In this document: positions 22,637-32,598 of the stretch, one piece after another | Layout: every line of letters starts with the position of its first letter | Numbering within the stretch: position 1 is the first letter of the stretch | IMG/VR virus record: IMGVR_UViG_3300021438_000010 | Coordinates: 1 to 64,000 of that record | Source of the DNA: a virus | DNA: 64,000 nt | Direction: 5' to 3' (one strand) | Notes under the pieces: model-generated | Databases searched by the model: none | The model's input: the letters and a program-made list of their open reading frames with translations, nothing else | What the model was told of the DNA's origin: nothing | Program-made: the position numbers and the translations under genes

Positions 22637-23625
22637 GTTGTAGATACCTCATATATTTTGTCAAACAATTCATTCCACTTATTTATAAATTTTTCTTCTG
22701 AAAACATTTCCAATATTGTATCTCTAGCATTTTTACCTAGTATTGATCTCAAATCTGAGTCATTCAAAACTAAATTTAAGTAATTTCTTAATTCATTTTC
22801 ATCATTCGATATAAATCCATTGTATCCATTTTTTATTATTTCTGGTATCATGCATGTTGCTGTAGATACGACAGCACATCCACATGACATAGCCTCTAGC
22901 AAAGATGTTGGAATTGGACTTAAAGTAGAGCTATTAAAGTAAACAGAACATGAAGTATAGGCATCAACTAACTCGTCTATAGACTTCGCTGGTTCAGAAA
23001 GTCCCTTAGTATCTCCAATTACTTGTACATCTAAGTTTTGAGTTACTCTTTTCCATCCAGAATAATTTAAACAATAGTCACGATTTATAAAGTCATTTGC
23101 TATAGTCAAAACTTTTTGATTTTTAATATTATCTTTTGGTGCAAATTTCTTTGAGTCTATACCATGATGTATTACTTCTCCATATATTCCCCAAGCTTTT
23201 TTGGAAAAATCTGATATAAAAACGTTAAAGTCGCCATTCATATTCTTCATTTGTTCCAACTGATCTCTAGGAGTAGTTTGAGGCGTAGGAACAGTATGCT
23301 CTAAGCAAATTATTGGTATGTTTAGCTGCTGATTTATATTTTGTGCCAGTTGGAATTGCCCAAACTTACTTTGAACTAATATAAAATCGTAGTTTATATA
23401 ATTACATAATTGATTCTTTGGCAGAATATGATAATTTATAGGAACTGGGGTTTGTTGCGTATTCCATTGCTTGGCATTATCAATATTTAAAGCGTAAAAA
23501 TCATGACCCGTTTTACACAGTTGTGTTTCATATCTTTCGTGAGTTGGAAAAGTTAGTATATTATATTTTTCCGGCTTTGTCTTGTTTGTTATATCAATTA
23601 ATCTTTCTACAGTATTATTATACAT
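22633..23625 (-). CDS. Glycosyltransferase family 4 (GT-B)
   Basis: VIHHGID, PTSLLEAMSCGCAVVST, IIKNGYNG. Confidence 0.9.
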   Translation of the reverse strand: MYNNTVERLIDITNKTKPEKYNILTFPTHERYETQLCKTGHDFYALNIDNAKQWNTQQTPVPINYHILPKNQLCNYINYDFILVQSKFGQFQLAQNINQQLNIPIICLEHTVPTPQTTPRDQLEQMKNMNGDFNVFISDFSKKAWGIYGEVIHHGIDSKKFAPKDNIKNQKVLTIANDFINRDYCLNYSGWKRVTQNLDVQVIGDTKGLSEPAKSIDELVDAYTSCSVYFNSSTLSPIPTSLLEAMSCGCAVVSTATCMIPEIIKNGYNGFISNDENELRNYLNLVLNDSDLRSILGKNARDTILEMFSEEKFINKWNELFDKIYEVSTT

Positions 23626-24730
23626 TTAATAGTTCCTTAATCAAATTTCCAACATTTTGGTAAGAAAATTCTTGTGCATCAGCAAGACCTCTGGATCTGT
23701 CAATAGATTCTCTATTTTCATAATAAAATCTCATAGCTGCTTTGATTTCATCTTCATCTGGTATAAACCAAGATTCTCTACCAGTGAAAATATTCTGAAA
23801 TGCCGCATCTGAGTGTTCACAAACTCCACGTATACCAGATATTAATGTACCAGAATCTCTATTTTTTATAAATTCTTTTGGTCCACCCTCATTGCTACAA
23901 ATTGGAGTTTTTCCAAAACACATAGCGTCAAAAGCTGGTATAGACCATCCTTCTCCATGAGTTGTATTTACTAAACAGTCACACGAATGGTGTAAAATAT
24001 CAATTTCTTCTTCTGTCATCTCATCAGATATAATTATCTCATCATGATAATCCTCTAATGATGGATAAATTCTAAGATTTTTTTTGATAGAGTTGCATAT
24101 TTCACTAACATGTTTTTGAAGTTCTTGAGGATGTATACCAAATTTTTTTACTTTTAATACTAAAGATACTGGTTCGTATCTACCAAACTCACTGTGGAAA
24201 CATCTTATTACAGTTTCTATATTTTTTCTATCATTTAGATCTGCTATATAATAAAACTTAAAGGTACTATTTTTTGATCCAAAGTTTAGTCTGCTAGAGA
24301 TTTTTTTATTATATCTTGAAAGATCAAATGCGTGTGGAGCATATTTTGCAAATTCAATACCATCGCTTTTTAAATTGTTTACCAAGTCTTTATTTGGAAC
24401 CCATACTTCATCAACCATTTTCAAATTTGACAACCAATTATTATATTTGAGTGTACTTGACTCACCAACATAATAACTAATATTTTTGTTAAATTTTGAT
24501 GTTCCAACAATATGGTGAGGTAAAACATGTTGTATGCATACTTTTACATCTGATATAGATTTTTTTTCTAACTCTAAAATTCTGTTTGGAATATCTCCTA
24601 TTTTGCTTGTCAGCTTGATATTTCTACATACAATATCAATACCAACAGAATCCATTGCCATAATTAAATCCGTAGCGGCTCTTGACCAACCGCTAGATTC
24701 TTTATAGTGTCCTATATAAAGTACTTTCAC
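23618..24730 (-). CDS. Glycosyltransferase family 4 (GT-B)
   Basis: SGWSRA, RKN, HGEGWSIPAFDAMCFG. Confidence 0.9.
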   Translation of the reverse strand: MKVLYIGHYKESSGWSRAATDLIMAMDSVGIDIVCRNIKLTSKIGDIPNRILELEKKSISDVKVCIQHVLPHHIVGTSKFNKNISYYVGESSTLKYNNWLSNLKMVDEVWVPNKDLVNNLKSDGIEFAKYAPHAFDLSRYNKKISSRLNFGSKNSTFKFYYIADLNDRKNIETVIRCFHSEFGRYEPVSLVLKVKKFGIHPQELQKHVSEICNSIKKNLRIYPSLEDYHDEIIISDEMTEEEIDILHHSCDCLVNTTHGEGWSIPAFDAMCFGKTPICSNEGGPKEFIKNRDSGTLISGIRGVCEHSDAAFQNIFTGRESWFIPDEDEIKAAMRFYYENRESIDRSRGLADAQEFSYQNVGNLIKELLNV

Positions 24731-24784
24731 TTCATTACTCCAATCTTACAAATATTTTTTGTAGTTTATATTTTTTATTATAAA

Positions 24785-26452
24785 TTACATACCTCTAGAT
24801 TTTAACATTTCGATTCTTTTGTTTTCCCAAAAATTTCTTCTCATACACAAGTGAGACATTTGTTCATAAGCGATGTCAAAATCAAATGGATTTCTAGTCT
24901 GCTTAGAATCAAAAGCGGCAGAGCTTTCGTTGAAATACATTCCGCCTGTTGTAGACGTTGCACTTCTATAAGTCAAATCTCTTACTAGTCTAGACTCAAA
25001 ATAAGAATTTATACGCTCTGGCTCTCCAAGTACTTCACTTATAAGCCATCTTGCAATCTCTTGTATCGGTGCCTGTTCTGGTATTTCTTTTGGTTTTGGT
25101 TGAGGGTTTTTGATCCTTGGTTCTGATTTCCAATTCTGAAAATTTTCAGATATTTGAACACTATCAAAATAATTTTCCCAAGCTTTGCCACTCTTATCCC
25201 ATTGATAATGTTTTAGAAATGCTTGCCTAGTCTCAAAGCCCAGCCTTTTTCTAATACTAATTGGTTGCTCAAAAAATTCCTTAAACTTCTTTGCTGCTAA
25301 CTCATTATCTGGAACTGCTCTAAAGCATCCTGTTTCAAGCTCTTTATATAAAGCCCTTGGCGTCAGAGGAGTTCCACCAAGATTCCTTACAACACTTTCC
25401 ATAGCAGAATAATCTGTTGCCATAACTGGTATTCCGCAAGCGGCGGCTTCTACTTGTGGCAATCCAAAGCCTTCGCAATTTGCATATTGTACATAAAGAT
25501 CAAACAAATTTATTATCTTAGAAAGATCTTCATATTCAACACCGTGTTTTACATTTGATAGCGAAGCACCATATTTACCAGTATACGGAGACTGTGCAAT
25601 AGCCCCTTTAAACAACGATGGAAAAGGTCTTCCTGTTTGACCGCATATATAAGTGAAATATACTTTGGATGATAATTGATATTGTTGTAAAAGTTCTGGA
25701 ATATCCCAACCTAAATCTGGATAACTAGTATGACAATATAGATAATAATTAGAGTTATCTTCTACGCTATCTAACAATAGTCTAAAGGCTTGAAACAGAT
25801 CTGGATACAACTTCCTTCTCTGGTTTCTCATGACTGTGCCAATAATTTTAGCCTCTGGATTAATTCCAAATGAAGCCCTTAATCCAGATTTGTCTTCTAT
25901 TGGTTGATATGCATTATGTGCGGAAGGAGGAGAAATCCCTATATAATTTATCTTTCCCCCAGACTGTTGTTTTAAAACTTCTCCAGCCCATTCTGAATAA
26001 GTTAAACATGCATCTGCTGATTTATAAGTTGAAACCCACTGCCTTGCTTGCGGTCTTGCGTCTACCGTTGGCATTATACACCATTTAAAATATGGCCTAA
26101 ATGGTGATCTTTCCGCAAAATCCAACATCCAAAAGTCTCGTATGTCACAAACAATATCTGGTAAGAAATCCAAACATACTGGTTCAAAAATCAATTCCCC
26201 AAATTGTGCTAGCGGATTCTGATTATATTGATTTTTCTCATCGTCAGGACACGAAGAGTCTGGAACAACGCCGTAATATTTCCAAGGTATGTTTTTAGCT
26301 CTTGAATCATGACGTTCACCATATGAAGCCATTTCAGCTAGTTCGTACTTTCCAGTACTATACAAATAATTTAATATTTCTCTAGTATAAGTAGCATAAC
26401 CGGTATTTAAGAATGTTGCTTCACTACAAAATAATATTCGTGGTTTTCTCAT
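24785..26452 (-). CDS. Glycosyltransferase family 4 (GT-B)
   Basis: TGYATY, RNQRRK, EGFGLPQVEAAACGIP. Confidence 0.9.
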   Translation of the reverse strand: MRKPRILFCSEATFLNTGYATYTREILNYLYSTGKYELAEMASYGERHDSRAKNIPWKYYGVVPDSSCPDDEKNQYNQNPLAQFGELIFEPVCLDFLPDIVCDIRDFWMLDFAERSPFRPYFKWCIMPTVDARPQARQWVSTYKSADACLTYSEWAGEVLKQQSGGKINYIGISPPSAHNAYQPIEDKSGLRASFGINPEAKIIGTVMRNQRRKLYPDLFQAFRLLLDSVEDNSNYYLYCHTSYPDLGWDIPELLQQYQLSSKVYFTYICGQTGRPFPSLFKGAIAQSPYTGKYGASLSNVKHGVEYEDLSKIINLFDLYVQYANCEGFGLPQVEAAACGIPVMATDYSAMESVVRNLGGTPLTPRALYKELETGCFRAVPDNELAAKKFKEFFEQPISIRKRLGFETRQAFLKHYQWDKSGKAWENYFDSVQISENFQNWKSEPRIKNPQPKPKEIPEQAPIQEIARWLISEVLGEPERINSYFESRLVRDLTYRSATSTTGGMYFNESSAAFDSKQTRNPFDFDIAYEQMSHLCMRRNFWENKRIEMLKSRGM

Positions 26453-26766
26453 TAGTCTTCAAAGTCCTTGTGGCAGAAATCAAATTCATTAATTCTAAAT
26501 ACTATCTCATCACTGTCCTTGGTGACATTTTTAGCAGAGGCATTAACAACTAATTTTGTACCTTTTGTAGCATACTTTTCTAAAGTCTCAGCACCAGTAT
26601 GCCAAGCCTCGCAGTTTATATAAGTTGGAATCCTGTTTTTCTCTCCGGTCTTAGTTTTACGATAAGTATATATAACCATAGTAAACTGGGCTAAAACTAT
26701 ATCTCCAACCATAGAGACTCTTGGGTTTTCAACCAAGTATCCCGTAAAAGAACATATATTCATCAA
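26452..26766 (-). CDS. ssb: Single-stranded DNA-binding protein (divergent, short)
   Basis: NICSFTGYLVENP..YINCEAW..AETLEKYATKG OB-fold pattern. Confidence 0.75.
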   Translation of the reverse strand: MMNICSFTGYLVENPRVSMVGDIVLAQFTMVIYTYRKTKTGEKNRIPTYINCEAWHTGAETLEKYATKGTKLVVNASAKNVTKDSDEIVFRINEFDFCHKDFED

Positions 26767-26816
26767 AACTCTCCTTATCTTATTATATTAGCAGCGACAT
26801 GACAAAAAAACAACTG

Positions 26817-28385
26817 TCAGATTTCATGAATTTTATCAACAATAAAAGAGGCATCATTAGCATTAACAGATCCACAAAAGATTAAATTATTACCTTCATA
26901 TAGTACATATTTATACTTTTCACGTACTTTTGGAAAGATTATAACACTATCTAATATACAAGTATCATCTTCTATTGTTAAAAATGACATAACCTGCCCC
27001 TTTGAATCACCTTTAGTAATTGTATAATCTGATAATCTCTGTATGTTAGCTACTATGCACATATCCTTGCCCTTTTTGCCATTAACAATTTCTTTACATG
27101 TAGTGTTAGCGGCAGACGTATCGGAAATTTCAACCTTAGTCATAGTAACAGGACAGCCTAAAAATTTAATTTCTTGATCTACTATCCAGCTGGGGTCATC
27201 TTCCAAATCATAAGGTGGATTGATAAGCAGTTGTATTTCATTCTCTACGGCTTGTTTTCTGTCAGCTTTGCTAGTTCCTCCACCTTCCTTTTTTGTAGGT
27301 GCTAAATCTTTTAAACAGTCTATAAAAGTATCCCATTTTTTTAGTGGATAATTATTTAATATCCAAGTCTGTTCAGATTTAGTAAGAGTTCTGTATATCT
27401 CATAGTCATATAAGGCTTTATTTCTACTGATGCTTCCTTTAAAGTTTCTAAAAAAACCTATTGAAGATAAAGCTTTAAAAGCTGTAGAACTGATATTTGC
27501 ACCAATAAATAACAAAATTTCAAGCCAAGTAAACTTGTCAACACTTTTTCCTAAATCTTGTTCTGCAACTATAATAGTCTCAATCAATTTATCTCCCGTT
27601 GCACCAGTTAATGATTTTATATCTTTGATACCAAAGTATATTTTTCCATTCTTTATATTAAACTTACGATCAAAGTTCGTTAAGCTTGGGGTTCTTGTTT
27701 CAATATCAAATAATTTAGCTTCTGATATTAATTCATAAACTTCTTGATGAGGATCTTGCTTTTCATTGGCATAGTACAAATATGATAGAAAAAACTCTTT
27801 AGTATTGTGGGCCTTAAAGTATGCACTCCAATAGGAACATACTGCATATGAAACACTGTGAGATTTATTAAAAGCATACCGTGAAGATTTTTCAATCCAT
27901 CCGAAAATTTGTTCAGCCTCGTCCTTAGAAACGATTCCAACACGCTCTGCTCCTGCTATAAATGATTTCTTAACTTCGTTCATAAGATCGGCTTTCTTCT
28001 TTCCGATAGCTTTACGAAGAACGTCAGCCTCTTGCAAATTAAATCCAGCAATTTTTTCAGCTATACGCATTGATTGTTCTTGATATACAAGAACACCATA
28101 CGTTGGTTTTAATATATCCTCTAGTGCGGGATGTAAATAGGTTACTTCTTCCCTTCCATGCTTTCTGTCTACATAACGCTGGGTCATGCTTTTACCATCA
28201 ACGAAAGCTTTCAAAGTTCCCGGTCTAATGATAGCAATTAATGCAGAAAGTTCTTCTAAATTCGTTGGTGCTAATTTCTTAGACCAAGACTTCCCAAGAT
28301 TACTTTCTAATTGAAAAATACCCTTGGTTTTACCCTCTGCAAATAATTGCCATGTTGCTTTATCATTATAATCAATATCGATCAT
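26817..28385 (-). CDS. dnaE: DNA polymerase III alpha subunit, C-terminal half (fingers, HhH, OB fold)
   Basis: GIFQLES, IRPG, TYGVLVYQEQ, ADVLRKAIGKK, YAFNKSHS, MSFLTIEDDT. Confidence 0.93.
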   Translation of the reverse strand: MIDIDYNDKATWQLFAEGKTKGIFQLESNLGKSWSKKLAPTNLEELSALIAIIRPGTLKAFVDGKSMTQRYVDRKHGREEVTYLHPALEDILKPTYGVLVYQEQSMRIAEKIAGFNLQEADVLRKAIGKKKADLMNEVKKSFIAGAERVGIVSKDEAEQIFGWIEKSSRYAFNKSHSVSYAVCSYWSAYFKAHNTKEFFLSYLYYANEKQDPHQEVYELISEAKLFDIETRTPSLTNFDRKFNIKNGKIYFGIKDIKSLTGATGDKLIETIIVAEQDLGKSVDKFTWLEILLFIGANISSTAFKALSSIGFFRNFKGSISRNKALYDYEIYRTLTKSEQTWILNNYPLKKWDTFIDCLKDLAPTKKEGGGTSKADRKQAVENEIQLLINPPYDLEDDPSWIVDQEIKFLGCPVTMTKVEISDTSAANTTCKEIVNGKKGKDMCIVANIQRLSDYTITKGDSKGQVMSFLTIEDDTCILDSVIIFPKVREKYKYVLYEGNNLIFCGSVNANDASFIVDKIHEI

Positions 28386-28732
28386 TTATTCCTCGACAAT
28401 AAGTAATTCAATGCTTGAATTAAGCCCTCTATGTTATCTCCTAATCTACTAATCCCTACATTGCAATTATTGCATAGCCATCCGCGAAATAAATCTGTTT
28501 TATGGCAATGATCTAAGTGTAATTTTCCAATTTTTCCACAACAGTCGCATTTGATCGGTTTAGTATGATTGTTTTCCTTTTTAAGTTTGATTAGTAATGC
28601 ATTTATTTTATACTCACAAGATTTACAATTTGTATATGTTCTTAATAAAGAATTATCTTCTGATCTTTGTCTATATCGAAATTCAGATTCATCCTTAAAT
28701 TGTCCACATTTTGGGCAAATCTTATTTGACAT
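28382..28732 (-). CDS. Endonuclease VII-family (HNH) homing-type endonuclease
   Basis: CPKC..CKSC zinc finger; CDCC..LHLDHCH..RGWLCNNCN..G; start placed at MSNKIC. Confidence 0.85.
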   Translation of the reverse strand: MSNKICPKCGQFKDESEFRYRQRSEDNSLLRTYTNCKSCEYKINALLIKLKKENNHTKPIKCDCCGKIGKLHLDHCHKTDLFRGWLCNNCNVGISRLGDNIEGLIQALNYLLSRNK

Positions 28733-29402
28733 ATAAATTTCCGTCAGCAAATGCCTTATCAAAGTTCATGTTCTGATATACTGCACGATGAGTCTTCATA
28801 AGCTTTATGAATATATTAGCTTCATCTTTAACGTCTTGCAATGCATCGTGTGCATTATCAAATGATAGTCCCATTCTTTCTCGTAGTGAGTCCATACTAA
28901 TAGATCTTACACTCGGATCACTCTCTGTCCAAGCAAATATACTATCCATAATGTCAATTTTGTAAACTCTACTAAATAACTTTTGCTGTTCTCTTTCCTT
29001 ATCCCAAGGACCAAATTCTTTGCACAGACGATTGATAATATGCATATCAAACCCAAGAATATTAAAACCTACAGGAATTGGATTATAAAAAGCATCGCCC
29101 TTCCAATTGTATTGATCAACAAATTTGGTAAATTTAGTCCACACTGACTTTAGAGAAGGTGCTAATTCTAATTGTTCTCTTGTCTTTTTAGTAATCTTTA
29201 ATGCTTCATCTTCAATCGGATCAAACCCTGCCGCCCTAGCTTTGTCTTCATCAAATATAGGCTTAATTTCGCTATTGAATTGTCCCTTCATTGTTAAACT
29301 TCTACCATCTAATGCTATGGCAGCAATCTGAGTTGGTTGTGTGCGATGAGGATTTCTGCTTCCAGTTTCAAAGTCAAATATAATATAGTCTCTATTAGCC
29401 AT
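28722..29402 (-). CDS. DEDDh 3'-5' exonuclease (DnaQ/epsilon-like)
   Basis: IFDFETG (ExoI), GFNILGFD (ExoII), AHDALQD (ExoIII). Confidence 0.9.
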   Translation of the reverse strand: MANRDYIIFDFETGSRNPHRTQPTQIAAIALDGRSLTMKGQFNSEIKPIFDEDKARAAGFDPIEDEALKITKKTREQLELAPSLKSVWTKFTKFVDQYNWKGDAFYNPIPVGFNILGFDMHIINRLCKEFGPWDKEREQQKLFSRVYKIDIMDSIFAWTESDPSVRSISMDSLRERMGLSFDNAHDALQDVKDEANIFIKLMKTHRAVYQNMNFDKAFADGNLYVK

Positions 29403-29919
29403 GATAGTGCAATACTCCTAATCCTTTTTCTACCTTATGAATTCTAAATGGGTATCTGGAAAGATCTATTGTGGTTCCTTTAATGGAAAAATCATCAATA
29501 CATATGTAGATATCTTGTAAATTAAAAGACAATATTTTATCAAATTGATTTTTAGTTTCGGATGGATCTACACTTCCGTCTAGATAGTAGAGGTTGTATT
29601 CTGGAGTAATATAGTCTATTCCATCACCATAACAAAGATTAACATCGTAGCCTAGCTGGCTTGAAATTAAATTTGAGTGTGCTAAATGATCCAAGGATAT
29701 ATCTGCTATAGTAAATATTCCACCATTTTTCTTTATATAGTTACCAAATATTATGTCAGACCAACCAGAACCTATCCTAAATAAATAATTATCTAGTGTT
29801 TCTATGGCACCAATTTGAAAAATATTAATAGGCTTATTAGAAAAAGTATTCAATACATTTAAAAATACTTCATCCCTTGGACTAGATATATTTATTAACT
29901 CATTTATTTTGTCTATCAT
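29395..29919 (-). CDS. Class I SAM methyltransferase-like protein
   Basis: IFQIG, TIADI, YGDG, LYYLDG and CIDD pattern typical of Methyltransf_24-like proteins. Confidence 0.6.
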   Translation of the reverse strand: MIDKINELINISSPRDEVFLNVLNTFSNKPINIFQIGAIETLDNYLFRIGSGWSDIIFGNYIKKNGGIFTIADISLDHLAHSNLISSQLGYDVNLCYGDGIDYITPEYNLYYLDGSVDPSETKNQFDKILSFNLQDIYICIDDFSIKGTTIDLSRYPFRIHKVEKGLGVLHYHG

Positions 29920-31531
29920 TAATGATCTCCTCTATTTTCATTATTTTATCAAGAAGGTTTATACCAAGAACATCAAACTTTACATGACCCAAAGCCTCCA
30001 AATCCGACATTTCTAATCCAGCAATTTTTTCCGATGATCCTTTTTGTTTTACCATAGGACATACTTGTTGTAATGGTTCAGCAGATATAACAACACCAGC
30101 AGCATGTTTACCTTGAGTCTTAAATGTACCCTCTATTTGAATAGCCTGCTCAAAATATTCAGCATATTCTCCATCTAATTTGTTGTCTTCTGATAATCTA
30201 CAAAAGTCTCGTAATGCATCAGAATTATTTATTAATGCCCACTTTATAATAGATCTATCTTCATCATCCATTTCTGCTAATTGATCTGAAATTTTAGCTT
30301 CATCTGGAATGCAGTTACTGATAGCATTCATCTCTGCGAATGAACAAGCCTCATTTATACGCAATACTTCTTTTATGGCACTTTTTCCTTGTAGCCTACC
30401 AAAAGTTAACATTTGACTAACTCTTTCATGACCATACTTGTCTTTAATATATGAAATAATTTCATCACGTTTAGTACCGGGAACGTCCATGTCAATATCT
30501 GGTAAAGATATATGATCGGCAGTATTTCGCCCAGCATTATAAAATCGTGCAAACAGAAGATCAAACTCTATAGGATCAATCTTAGTAATACCAATTAAGT
30601 ATGAGATTAAACAACCTGCGGCAGACCCTCTACCGGGACCAGAAAGCCAGCCCATATCATTAACATGCTGTATAATATCACGAACAATTAAAAAATATCC
30701 GAATAGATTAGCACCTTTAATAACATCAAATTCTTCCTTGAATCTACTAAGATATTTCTGCTTATCTTCTTCTTTTGATACTTTGCCTTGATCTATTAAT
30801 ATTTTCTTCCAACCTATGCGACATAGTTCTTTAAGATAATCTTCTTCTGTCGCTCCTTTTGGACACTCAAATTTTGGAAGCATTGGCTTGCTAAGAATAT
30901 CGTAGTCTTCGCATTGGTCATAAATCTTTTTTAGTTTAGTTATATCTAAACCCTTGGTTTCTGTTTTGTCTTTTACATAGAAAGAATCGCTAGTAAAAAA
31001 ACTTAATTTATCTAGATGTTCCTTGGGATATTTATTTTCATCTACTAAAATATCTCCATCTAGGGCTTTATGCAAAGACTTCTTTATCTTTGGTAATGTT
31101 GTCTTCATCTCTGAACACAATAATATTCTATGAAGCTTTGCATCTTCACGATTAGTATAATAGCTGATAGGCATTGATTCGTCGGGAGCATTGAAGACAC
31201 TAATGAGATTTTTGCTAACCTCTAAGCTATCAAAATCTCTTGGTAATTTGCCATTTTCGTCCAATGCTGAAACCATCTCAATCAATTCATACCAACCTTC
31301 TTTGTTCTTAGCAAATAATGTAGTAGCATCAAAAGAGCATCCAATAATAGGCTTTATACCATGCTTTTTACAAGCCTTATAAAATGCTACTGCTCCAGAT
31401 AATGTCTTATAATCACAGATACCACATGCTGGATATCCATTTTCTTTACATTTTTTAGCCAATTCTTCTGGTTTTGAGTAACCTTTTAGCAAACTATAGT
31501 GAGTATAATTCTTCAACGGGAACCAATTCAT
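29900..31531 (-). CDS. dnaE: DNA polymerase III alpha subunit, N-terminal half (degenerate PHP + palm/thumb)
   Basis: THYSLL, KPIIG, GYFLIVRD, GPGRGSAAG, LLFARF, SLPDIDMD, KHAAGVVI, KFDVLG. Confidence 0.93.
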   Translation of the reverse strand: MNWFPLKNYTHYSLLKGYSKPEELAKKCKENGYPACGICDYKTLSGAVAFYKACKKHGIKPIIGCSFDATTLFAKNKEGWYELIEMVSALDENGKLPRDFDSLEVSKNLISVFNAPDESMPISYYTNREDAKLHRILLCSEMKTTLPKIKKSLHKALDGDILVDENKYPKEHLDKLSFFTSDSFYVKDKTETKGLDITKLKKIYDQCEDYDILSKPMLPKFECPKGATEEDYLKELCRIGWKKILIDQGKVSKEEDKQKYLSRFKEEFDVIKGANLFGYFLIVRDIIQHVNDMGWLSGPGRGSAAGCLISYLIGITKIDPIEFDLLFARFYNAGRNTADHISLPDIDMDVPGTKRDEIISYIKDKYGHERVSQMLTFGRLQGKSAIKEVLRINEACSFAEMNAISNCIPDEAKISDQLAEMDDEDRSIIKWALINNSDALRDFCRLSEDNKLDGEYAEYFEQAIQIEGTFKTQGKHAAGVVISAEPLQQVCPMVKQKGSSEKIAGLEMSDLEALGHVKFDVLGINLLDKIMKIEEIINDRQNK

Positions 31532-31567
31532 ATATTTCCTTATTCAAAATCAAGAGATCAACAACTT

Positions 31568-31596
31568 ATTATACCGTCTTGGGGACCATAAGTCAA
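31568..31596 (-). promoter_or_regulatory. Near-consensus sigma70 promoter upstream of dnaE-N
   Basis: TTGACT-N17-TATAAT on the - strand in the intergenic gap. Confidence 0.8.
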
Positions 31597-31617
31597 TATG
31601 ACCCCCAAACAAAATTA

Positions 31618-32163
31618 TCAAACCTGTATGCTTAAGAAATTATCAAGACCCATTTGCTCAATAAGCTTCAAATAACCTTCATATAATTCAATACCATCTT
31701 CACTACCTTGTAGTAATGGAGTCATCATATTAGCAGTAATTTCATCACCAACTGCCCTAGCCGCCACAATCGTTGCCCTCTCAGCAACAGACGCTTCTTT
31801 TACTGATGCAAGATTATATTCGATCATTGACACCATATCATGACGTTTCCACGAAGGCGGGCTTACCATCAATGGTTGATAGTCAGCGTCAAAAAATTCA
31901 AGTCTTTTAATATTGATTGCGGCGTGTTCTTGTTCTTGTTTTGAATCGGCCTTAATAATTTCTGCTAGTTTTTTGTATCCCCATCTTTCAAGATGTTCTG
32001 CTTGTGCTGTTAGAACAGTTGTTTGCTGCCAGTGAATATTTAATGATTTTTTCAATAGTTCTATAACTTGGTCACTAGAGTAACCAGACACTTCTTGTGC
32101 TATAACATCATCTTTTATTTCGGATTGATTCTGTTGATCCAAAAGTTCATTAATACTTGTCAT
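31618..32163 (-). CDS. bfr: Bacterioferritin-like protein (degenerate ferroxidase centre)
   Basis: VIELL..RWGYKKLA..EQEHA..KRL..F; GDEIT; C-terminal LIEQMGLDNFL matches Bfr helix E. Confidence 0.75.
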   Translation of the reverse strand: MTSINELLDQQNQSEIKDDVIAQEVSGYSSDQVIELLKKSLNIHWQQTTVLTAQAEHLERWGYKKLAEIIKADSKQEQEHAAINIKRLEFFDADYQPLMVSPPSWKRHDMVSMIEYNLASVKEASVAERATIVAARAVGDEITANMMTPLLQGSEDGIELYEGYLKLIEQMGLDNFLSIQV

Positions 32164-32178
32164 ATATATCTCCTGTAT

Positions 32179-32598
32179 TTATTTTATTGGACCGCCAGTG
32201 ATCCATGCGTCACAAGTCCTATCTCCAGCACATTTAAAATCAAATAACTCACAGTATCCTAAATTGGCTTTGTCAACTATATCTAGTGCTAATTGCTCTT
32301 CATCTATTTCAGAAGCAATTCCTTTTTCTATGCAATTTATCATTTTTTCTTTTTGGATAAATGCTGCACAGTTTTTGCATCTCATTGTTTGTGCTTGTTC
32401 AATATCTGTTTTAAATAGATCGGCTTTCTTTTTCCAAAAATCAGAATTATCTAGTTCTGGATTCGCTGGACCATAGTTTGCTTTTTCTACACAAATCTTT
32501 CTATTAGCTAAATTAATAGTAATATCCTGCGTTGCTGGCGGGCATTCTATTTTAGCTTGAACGGATTGTAATAATTCTTCTGCTCTAGATTTTTTCAT
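32179..32598 (-). CDS. Cys-rich HiPIP-like putative Fe-S protein
   Basis: CKNC..F...GYCELF...CDAW resembles the HiPIP pattern CxNC...GCxLF...CxxW. Confidence 0.45.
   Translation of the reverse strand: MKKSRAEELLQSVQAKIECPPATQDITINLANRKICVEKANYGPANPELDNSDFWKKKADLFKTDIEQAQTMRCKNCAAFIQKEKMINCIEKGIASEIDEEQLALDIVDKANLGYCELFDFKCAGDRTCDAWITGGPIK

Follow-up and report, generated by a model that had tools for sequence, protein, structure and literature searches.

Background

C-family DNA polymerases are the replicases of bacteria. Here we describe a gene for such a replicase, dnaE, which an uncultured aquatic phage carries as two separate genes, with the gene of a putative proofreading exonuclease among those lying between them. 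The locus stands in a window of 64,000 nucleotides (nt), which is the whole stretch of DNA that was analysed and corresponds to positions 1 to 64,000 of the IMG/VR virus record IMGVR_UViG_3300021438_000010, itself 98.6 kb long, about 65% complete and with a GC content near 33%.

Several systems of a comparable kind have been described in phages. In Aeromonas phage 25 the gp43A and gp43B proteins are active and purify together (PMC2988022), and Edgell et al. 2010 reported that the NrdA of phage Aeh1 is split by mobE, a homing nuclease being present in some alleles and possibly having invaded a gene that was already split (PMC2988022). The DNAP-N and DNAP-C proteins of PhiKZ form a stable 1:1 complex, as established by cryo-electron microscopy (Basu et al. 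2026 preprint, PMC13648687). Iyer et al. 2021 recognized a minimal split Pol III alpha in the group 2.2 jumbo phages and predicted that its two proteins reconstitute the enzyme (PMC7824862), and a split PolA gene has been reported from phages of marine OM43 bacteria (PMC10580990). In the "fractured genes" of Dassa et al. 2009, the halves are adjacent, a free-standing nuclease gene lies between them, and the invading element supplies the start codon of the downstream half (PMC2677866). The natural split forms of C-family polymerases that we encountered in the literature searched were either rejoined by inteins or minimal auxiliary modules, and a full-text literature search returned no paper describing the dnaE layout of the window.

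The evidence presented below suggests that this phage quite probably makes its C-family replicase as two chains that assemble non-covalently, with the gene of a cognate proofreader between them, in an old three-gene core joined by two later cassettes. Split replicative polymerases as such are already known; what is new in this analysis is the anatomy of the cassettes, the homing gradient, the split-intein control in relatives and the interleaving of fused and split forms.

The two dnaE genes and their products

On the minus strand of the window dnaE is present as two open reading frames (ORFs), an N-half of 543 amino acids (aa) at 31531..29900 and a C-half of 522 aa at 28385..26817, as established from the ORFs, their translations and searches against Pfam and PHROG. 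They are the first and last of five overlapping minus-strand genes, the three between them being a 174-aa gene with a predicted class I S-adenosylmethionine (SAM)-methyltransferase fold (29919..29395), a DEDDh 3'-5' exonuclease of 226 aa (29402..28722; PF00929 E 4e-14, phrog_192), which is the putative proofreading subunit, and an Endo VII-type free-standing nuclease gene (28732..28382; PF02945 E 2e-11, phrog_2633). The ATG of the C-half overlaps the Endo VII stop (ATGA), and the 1,514 nt from the N-half stop to the C-half start are entirely coding, with overlapping stops and starts. A first-pass annotation, which had been made from the letters of the window, already recognized two separate dnaE genes, about 1.5 kb of overlap-coupled and fully coding genes between them, and an exonuclease and a methyltransferase in this interval. 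All of these are upheld, the exonuclease by the PF00929 and phrog_192 matches and its invariant DEDDh residues, and the methyltransferase at the level of the fold. Two details had to be corrected: the methyltransferase-fold gene precedes the exonuclease rather than following it, and the Endo VII gene most likely starts at the ATG at 28732, the TTG at 28762 that had been proposed being an alternative start.

The N-half comprises a reduced PHP domain (PF02811 E 3e-20), the thumb and a Pol III alpha palm that is complete, its match spanning 2-260 of the 260 positions of PF07733. In the C-half are found the fingers (PF17657 E 8e-49, the match running from profile position 24 to 164), a weak HhH match and an OB-like C-terminus. 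The PHROG profile of the polymerase, phrog_405, is covered by the N-half over positions 246-618 and by the C-half over 625-1055. In an alignment with the Escherichia coli alpha subunit the N-half extends up to residue 577 and the C-half resumes at 589 with nothing lost, the variable stretch 578-588 being replaced by one terminal residue of the N-half and three of the C-half. Both catalytic motifs, PDIDMD (D345, D347) and KFD (D520), lie in the N-half, where the three aspartates had been placed initially, and align to the E. coli catalytic residues D401, D403 and D555; they are invariant across 33 homologues. The C-half contributes the fingers motifs LRKAIGKKK, aligning to E. coli 708-716 (R709/R710), and FNKSH, aligning to the NKSH motif, the residues of which we take, from Pol III alpha structures, to contact the incoming nucleotide. 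The predicted polymerase active site is composite, being divided between two polypeptides.

The position of the break can be seen by comparison with a fused relative, L048, in which the homologous protein is a single ORF of 1144 aa collinear with both halves. In its AlphaFold2 (AF2) model (pLDDT 91, pTM 0.83) the KFD strand (611-617) is followed by a helix (618-630), a coil (631-639) and a further helix (640-647), and the break in the window corresponds to L048 631|632, within this nine-residue coil. The first-pass annotation had assigned the break to the palm-to-fingers linker, with essentially nothing lost; the latter part stands, and the position is revised to about 20 residues beyond the formal palm/fingers border, after the first helix of the fingers.

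The two halves total 1065 aa and have no tau-binding C-terminal extension. The metal ligands of the PHP domain are replaced in the N-half (HxH by KNY, DHG by DYK, GCE by GCS and PDAHY by PISYY), and about 90 residues of this domain are deleted (window 31531..30900). The same loss of ligands is seen both in a fused protein (P0127) and in a split locus (L042), and the ligands are retained in L048, L049 and P0160, so that the loss goes with the lineage and not with the split. Thus, of the features of a DnaE-type enzyme the palm aspartate triad and the fingers motifs are present, and the PHP metal ligands and the single polypeptide are not.

In a more distant split clade (L049:6107-6220, L054:10699-10810, L058, L065, L070 and L072) the C-halves carry an additional 25-35 N-terminal residues with a conserved F-x-CGC-x-F, which neither the fused relatives nor the window possess. 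Possibly this extension forms a zinc or hairpin element and helps the halves to reassemble.

Distribution among relatives

A scan of IMG/VR seeded with the N-half recovered 78 loci, with identities of 45-93%. About 70 of these have N-half, exonuclease and C-half in that order, with the cut at the homologous position wherever the contig held both halves; the exceptions are the fused L048 and two distant fused outgroups. A second IMG/VR scan, seeded from the fused sister group, added 80 further loci, 69 of them split with the exonuclease inside, two fused (L084, L085) and nine incomplete. Altogether about 140 IMG/VR contigs carry this order with intact reading frames, and its recurrence in so many independent metagenome contigs excludes an assembly artefact, an objection that had been foreseen in the first-pass annotation. 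The element that is constant between the halves across these relatives is the exonuclease and not the Endo VII or the methyltransferase gene, and most split loci are without any nuclease gene.

A length-relaxed protein search yielded DnaE proteins of the fused kind, about 33 in number, which have the fingers domain, measure 1052-1519 aa and are 43-56% identical to the N-half. With contiguous homologues in relatives (L048 and these proteins) and both pieces conserved, the locus has the properties of an intein-less fractured gene. Three further proteins, P0148, P0154 and P0161, were considered as fused forms and rejected, because inteins account for their length and each is an N-half that lacks the fingers domain. 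An IMG/VR locus search with the fused P0127 and P0141 found nothing, and the gene context of fused alleles was read for L048, L084 and L085.

The two junctions of the core hold a variable cargo, which includes micro-ORFs of 60-75 aa, FkbM methyltransferases (L011, L063), an HNH gene (L031), Endo VII genes and ORFs without a known family. The nuclease genes seen at dnaE junctions are of the Endo VII, HNH, LAGLIDADG and TnsA/Vsr-like kinds. In many relatives the slot between N-half and exonuclease is filled by one of the micro-ORFs, which have no family match (L009:9620-9802, L042:9536-9763, L049:5256-5444, L058:9850-10032), whereas in the window it holds the methyltransferase-fold gene. In some loci several added genes have expanded the space between the halves to 3-5 kb, and the exonuclease has stayed inside (L153:10839-16092, L163:10824-14201, L111:10791-13748), the largest insert being 5.2 kb (L153).

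Among cultured phages, too, dnaE is annotated in pieces, at other sites of division. Cellulophaga phage phi13:1 (L080, KC821625) has it as two abutting ORFs, split inside the palm, and Bacillus phage vB_BceM_WH1 (L081, LC597490) as three, separated by 400-700 nt each time, which may represent introns.

The exonuclease and the functional state of the locus

The residues of the Exo I, II and III motifs of the exonuclease, D10, E12, D119, H185 and D190, are invariant in 34 homologues, as expected of a DEDDh enzyme. Its tree is congruent with that of DnaE, the exonucleases of the fused genomes included, so it would be vertically inherited rather than a travelling gene. In those genomes it lies about 1.1 kb upstream of the fused dnaE (L048) or about 2 kb downstream (L084, L085). 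The exonuclease thus appears as a resident partner of the polymerase whose position changes. On the grounds of synteny and co-phylogeny, it is the likely cognate proofreader of the split polymerase, and we predict that it is an active nuclease that binds the polymerase.

Both halves and the exonuclease evolve under strong constraint. Comparison of the window with its relatives gives a ratio of non-synonymous to synonymous substitution (dN/dS) of 0.013 for the exonuclease, of 0.05-0.08 for the N-half and of 0.02-0.08 for the C-half, dS itself being near or above 1. A single Pol III palm and a single exonuclease of the RNase_T family are present in each of four relatives of 94-100% completeness (149-167 kb; one has terminal repeats), and in these four no A- or B-family polymerase (PolA/PolB) and no second Pol III palm was found.

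These observations point to a non-covalent N:C polymerase, as already proposed in the first-pass annotation, as the best supported and most economical reading, the physical assembly of the chains being deduced from them. The N-half would supply the degenerate PHP domain, the palm with its three catalytic aspartates and the thumb, and the C-half the fingers, the HhH region and the OB region, the cut falling in a surface loop between two helices. The halves would then assemble without covalent joining into a composite active site, and the exonuclease would be expressed from the same overlap-coupled string of genes, probably as part of one transcript. N-half, exonuclease and C-half would constitute the old core of a very large clade of uncultured aquatic phages, in which split and fused states would have interconverted several times. 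In the lineage of the window, two later cassettes would have settled on the two internal gene boundaries, each preserving the stop/start overlaps.

Direction of evolution

In a DnaE tree of 74 rows the fused and split forms are interleaved, which calls for at least four changes of state. A first tree, in which L048 was the sole close fused row, had suggested a single nested fused allele, and this was superseded once many fused alleles were found. A tree that keeps the split forms monophyletic is rejected (delta log-likelihood 365; approximately unbiased, AU, test p-AU 6e-7), with the provisos that the tree search was a quick one under LG+G4, that the group submitted to the AU test was named after the tree had been seen, and that recombination may blur the picture.

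This interleaving lends itself to two histories. It is conceivable that the fused gene is ancestral and that an exonuclease cassette, perhaps driven by an adjacent homing nuclease, has repeatedly homed into the same loop of dnaE, the split state being a recurrent product of selfish elements. In favor of this proposal, besides the failure of split monophyly, the outgroup DnaEs are fused, the junctions are hot spots for Endo VII, HNH, LAGLIDADG and TnsA/Vsr-like genes, and the identity gradient around the Endo VII gene, described below, shows gene conversion to be ongoing at the site. However, such a course needs at least five independent insertions of an orthologous exonuclease at one position, as against one split and three re-fusions. 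Moreover, the exonuclease tree follows that of DnaE even in the fused genomes; the exonuclease lies upstream in L048 and downstream in L084 and L085, which is what independent exits would produce; and most split loci hold no nuclease gene at all. We therefore consider repeated splitting doubtful, although it is the most serious of the alternatives, and moderately favor one old split followed by several re-fusions (four changes) over five or more identical insertions.

A more elaborate form of the two-chain reading would make the three core genes the code for an obligate heterotrimer, with the exonuclease docking at the palm/fingers break or assembled through it. The gene order would then be adaptive, for instance by allowing an ordered co-translational assembly, rather than the scar of a selfish element, and the split would have been gained or reverted at least four times. 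We hold this to be unlikely. If it were true, the locus would represent a PolC-like "inserted proofreader" at a new site, made as three chains in a globally abundant phage clade.

Returning to the non-covalent two-chain polymerase with an old three-gene core, certain points weigh against it or against parts of it, in addition to the provisos on the tree given above. The split may have arisen repeatedly rather than once. No cultured relative was found, the best tblastn matches in the phage record collection being below 33% identity. No beta-clamp that would account for processivity was detected, and a phage that relied on the host replicase might in principle do without a polymerase of its own.

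The Endo VII and methyltransferase-fold cassettes

The first-pass annotation had offered the invasion of the Endo VII gene as a possible cause of the split. Homing nucleases are indeed known to fracture intein-less genes, as in Aeh1 nrdA and T4 gene 60 (PMC2988022; PMC2677866), and the Endo VII gene directly adjoins the C-half through the ATGA overlap. An alignment of the DNA with relatives points the other way. In L004 and L013, which have no nuclease gene, the ATG of the C-half lies within the last codons of the exonuclease (ATGTTAAATAA), overlapping its stop. The equivalent ATG in the window (28732) now opens the Endo VII gene (M-S-N-K...), and the cassette ends in ...AGGAATAAATGATCGAT, making a new start for the C-half. 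Because the old start codon of the C-half is now that of Endo VII, the C-half must have been separate already when the cassette entered; the Endo VII gene appears to have been inserted into a C-half gene with a start of its own and to have taken over its translation start.

The distribution of the gene agrees with a late arrival. Endo VII is sporadic, being present in 12 of about 70 loci, and most relatives, among them L004, L013 and L014, are split at the identical position without it. It is also absent from the four 94-100% complete relatives and is therefore dispensable, so that a role as an essential phage resolvase, which we had considered, was rejected. The allele in L017 is 50% identical at the aa level to that of the window within flanks that are 93-96% identical, which speaks for later and repeated invasion. 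Over 28811..28362 the window and L001 share 97-99% of their nt, compared with 80-90% in the background, and the identity falls stepwise into the C-half (94, 92, 87 and about 80%). Such a gradient is to be expected of recent homing with co-conversion. With the catalytic motif DHxH...N and the Cys pairs intact, the gene is best regarded as a free-standing homing endonuclease cassette with putative cleavage activity. As the cause of the split it was rejected, and an origin of the two halves by Endo VII invasion in the lineage of the window is very improbable.

The 174-aa product of the other cassette (P0002) has no match in Pfam, PHROG or NCBIfam, and a search of its profile against PDB sequences gave nothing relevant. 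Its AF2 model is of high quality (pLDDT 92, pTM 0.90), and the top Foldseek matches are all cation-dependent O-methyltransferases, TrmR or COMT (E 2e-8 to 6e-6, TM about 0.7); the atlas lead was Methyltransf_24. On the strength of the model the protein is a predicted class I SAM-methyltransferase fold. It shows no significant similarity to genes of the neighbouring slot in other loci (the FkbM methyltransferase of L011 and the ORFs of L016 and L037). Apart from the window it occupies the slot between N-half and exonuclease in L001 and L002 alone, and homologues occur elsewhere in L025 and L077. The cassette replaced the last eight or so codons of the N-half and inherited the old GGC-TAA stop that overlaps the ATG of the exonuclease. 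As judged from the alignments, both the Endo VII and the methyltransferase-fold genes are later cassettes placed exactly at pre-existing gene boundaries. The window thus furnishes a clean example of homing-nuclease and accessory cassettes inserting on gene boundaries with translational coupling kept.

Possible rejoining or decay of the halves

Split inteins rejoin the products of cyanobacterial dnaE and of the "fractured" dnaE loci known from metagenomes (PMC2677866), and certain relatives of the phage use a split intein elsewhere in the same gene, which makes rejoining by protein trans-splicing, RNA splicing or translational bypass an alternative to be weighed. We found no intein match from Pfam in either half, and at the break there is neither a Cys- or Ser-initiated N-intein nor a terminal HN-Ser/Cys/Thr. 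The N-half has one residue and the C-half three beyond the homologous sequence, which leaves no room for intein parts. Nothing within 26000-32500, on either strand, matched Rfam at E<=1. In the minimal relatives the exonuclease gene overlaps its neighbours at both ends, its start with the stop of the N-half and its stop with the start of the C-half, so that there is no room for the RNA core of an intron either. A translational bypass of 0.7-5 kb is without precedent. The initial assertions that neither junction has a split-intein motif and that the interval, being coding, could not accommodate an intron are borne out by these searches and by the alignment of the termini. Accordingly, split intein, intron and bypass were all rejected as ways of rejoining the halves, and we give this alternative hardly any credence.

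An internal positive control is provided by three relatives (L063:5950-8714, L072:7368-10444 and L073:8031-10322), in which a textbook split intein (Cys1 ... HN|Ser) divides the N-half once more, at G302|S303. The upstream piece reads GPGRG|CFLPD... and runs on for about 70 residues, and the downstream piece opens with about 35 residues ending in ...GVHN|SAAGC. A TnsA/Vsr-like nuclease gene lies between these pieces in L063 and L072, and there is none in L073. Where a split intein is present in this family its signatures are plain, and they are absent at the palm/fingers break of the window.

Two further interruptions of dnaE were noted in relatives. In L064 (10738-13023) the C-half reaches 761 aa through an in-frame intein with an HNH domain, located inside the fingers domain (PF14890 and HNH matches). 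In L074 (7386-10237) a second intein-free split interrupts the N-half immediately ahead of the PDID motif; a LAGLIDADG gene separates the two resulting pieces, and the downstream one carries about 80 additional aa at its N-terminus.

The reading of the split gene as a decaying or non-essential remnant, with replication left to the host Pol III, might appeal to the lack of a detected phage clamp and to the degenerate PHP domain in the lineage of the window, and has next to nothing to recommend it in view of dN/dS values of 0.02-0.08 at saturated dS, catalytic residues invariant across 33 N-halves, frames intact in about 140 contigs and the position of the gene as the sole polymerase in complete genomes; a pseudogene was likewise rejected.

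Neighbouring features

A promoter-like site on the minus strand (TTGACT, 17 nt, TATAAT; 31568..31596) with 11 of 12 consensus matches lies just upstream of the N-half start. In a consensus scan such sites are no more numerous across the region than expected by chance, so that this one is weak; a five-gene transcript might begin here. The C-half is directly followed by a 104-aa ORF (26766..26452, minus strand), which matches just the C-terminal part of the single-stranded DNA-binding protein (SSB) family (phrog_44 86-160, E 2.5e-8). Two glycosyltransferase-like genes (phrog_2170; 26452..23618, minus strand) immediately follow the replication block. A megablast search of the locus against phage records gave no match.

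Significance and comparison with known systems

The clade of the window has a full-length Pol III alpha with a predicted active site divided between two chains as the sole polymerase found. If the chains assemble as proposed, the break would offer a natural permissive split site for the engineering of DnaE, and the core a minimal three-protein proofreading replicase to be reconstituted. The family would also be a well-sampled natural experiment, since this one gene family offers fused as well as split states, inteins both split and in-frame, and homing nucleases of four kinds. This material bears on the fracture and re-fusion of essential genes.

With single-chain DnaE (E. coli 2HNH and 5FKU; Taq 2HPI) and the fused sister alleles (L048; P0126-P0160) the polymerase of the window shares the domain order PHP, palm, thumb, fingers, HhH and OB, the aspartate triad and the fingers motifs. 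It differs in being two chains with an exonuclease gene at the break, in the loss of the PHP ligands and in the want of a tau-binding extension. Firmicutes PolC carries its DEDDh exonuclease as an in-frame domain inside the PHP domain. A DEDDh exonuclease within the linear order of a C-family polymerase is thus common to PolC and the window; in the window it has a gene of its own, which comes after the part encoding the palm and the first helix of the fingers, and the product consists of three chains.

The cyanobacterial split-intein dnaE and the fractured genes of Dassa et al. resemble the locus in having dnaE in two genes, and the supply of a start codon by the invading element recurs in the Endo VII cassette of the window. 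The G302|S303 split inteins of the relatives are a genuine instance of that fractured-gene arrangement. Unlike these, the junction in the window is without intein parts and at another integration point, and the constant intervening gene is an exonuclease and not a homing nuclease.

For split phage polymerases that assemble non-covalently, direct precedents come from family B. As with gp43A/43B of Aeromonas phages 25 and 44RR and with Aeh1 NrdA, an essential replication enzyme is encoded by two adjacent genes with non-covalent reassembly of the products, which for the window is our deduction. Those cases are confined to a few phages and concern a ribonucleotide reductase and a polymerase of the B family, whereas here a C-family enzyme is split clade-wide with a proofreader between the halves. 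The PhiKZ polymerase is likewise a two-subunit phage replicative polymerase and provides a proven precedent for the mechanism proposed here; it is of family B, has another split point and does not have an exonuclease between its genes. Finally, the split Pol III of the jumbo phages is a minimal core without PHP or other domains, encoded by distant genes beside a family B replicase, whereas that of the window is full-length, is encoded by adjacent genes and is the only polymerase found.

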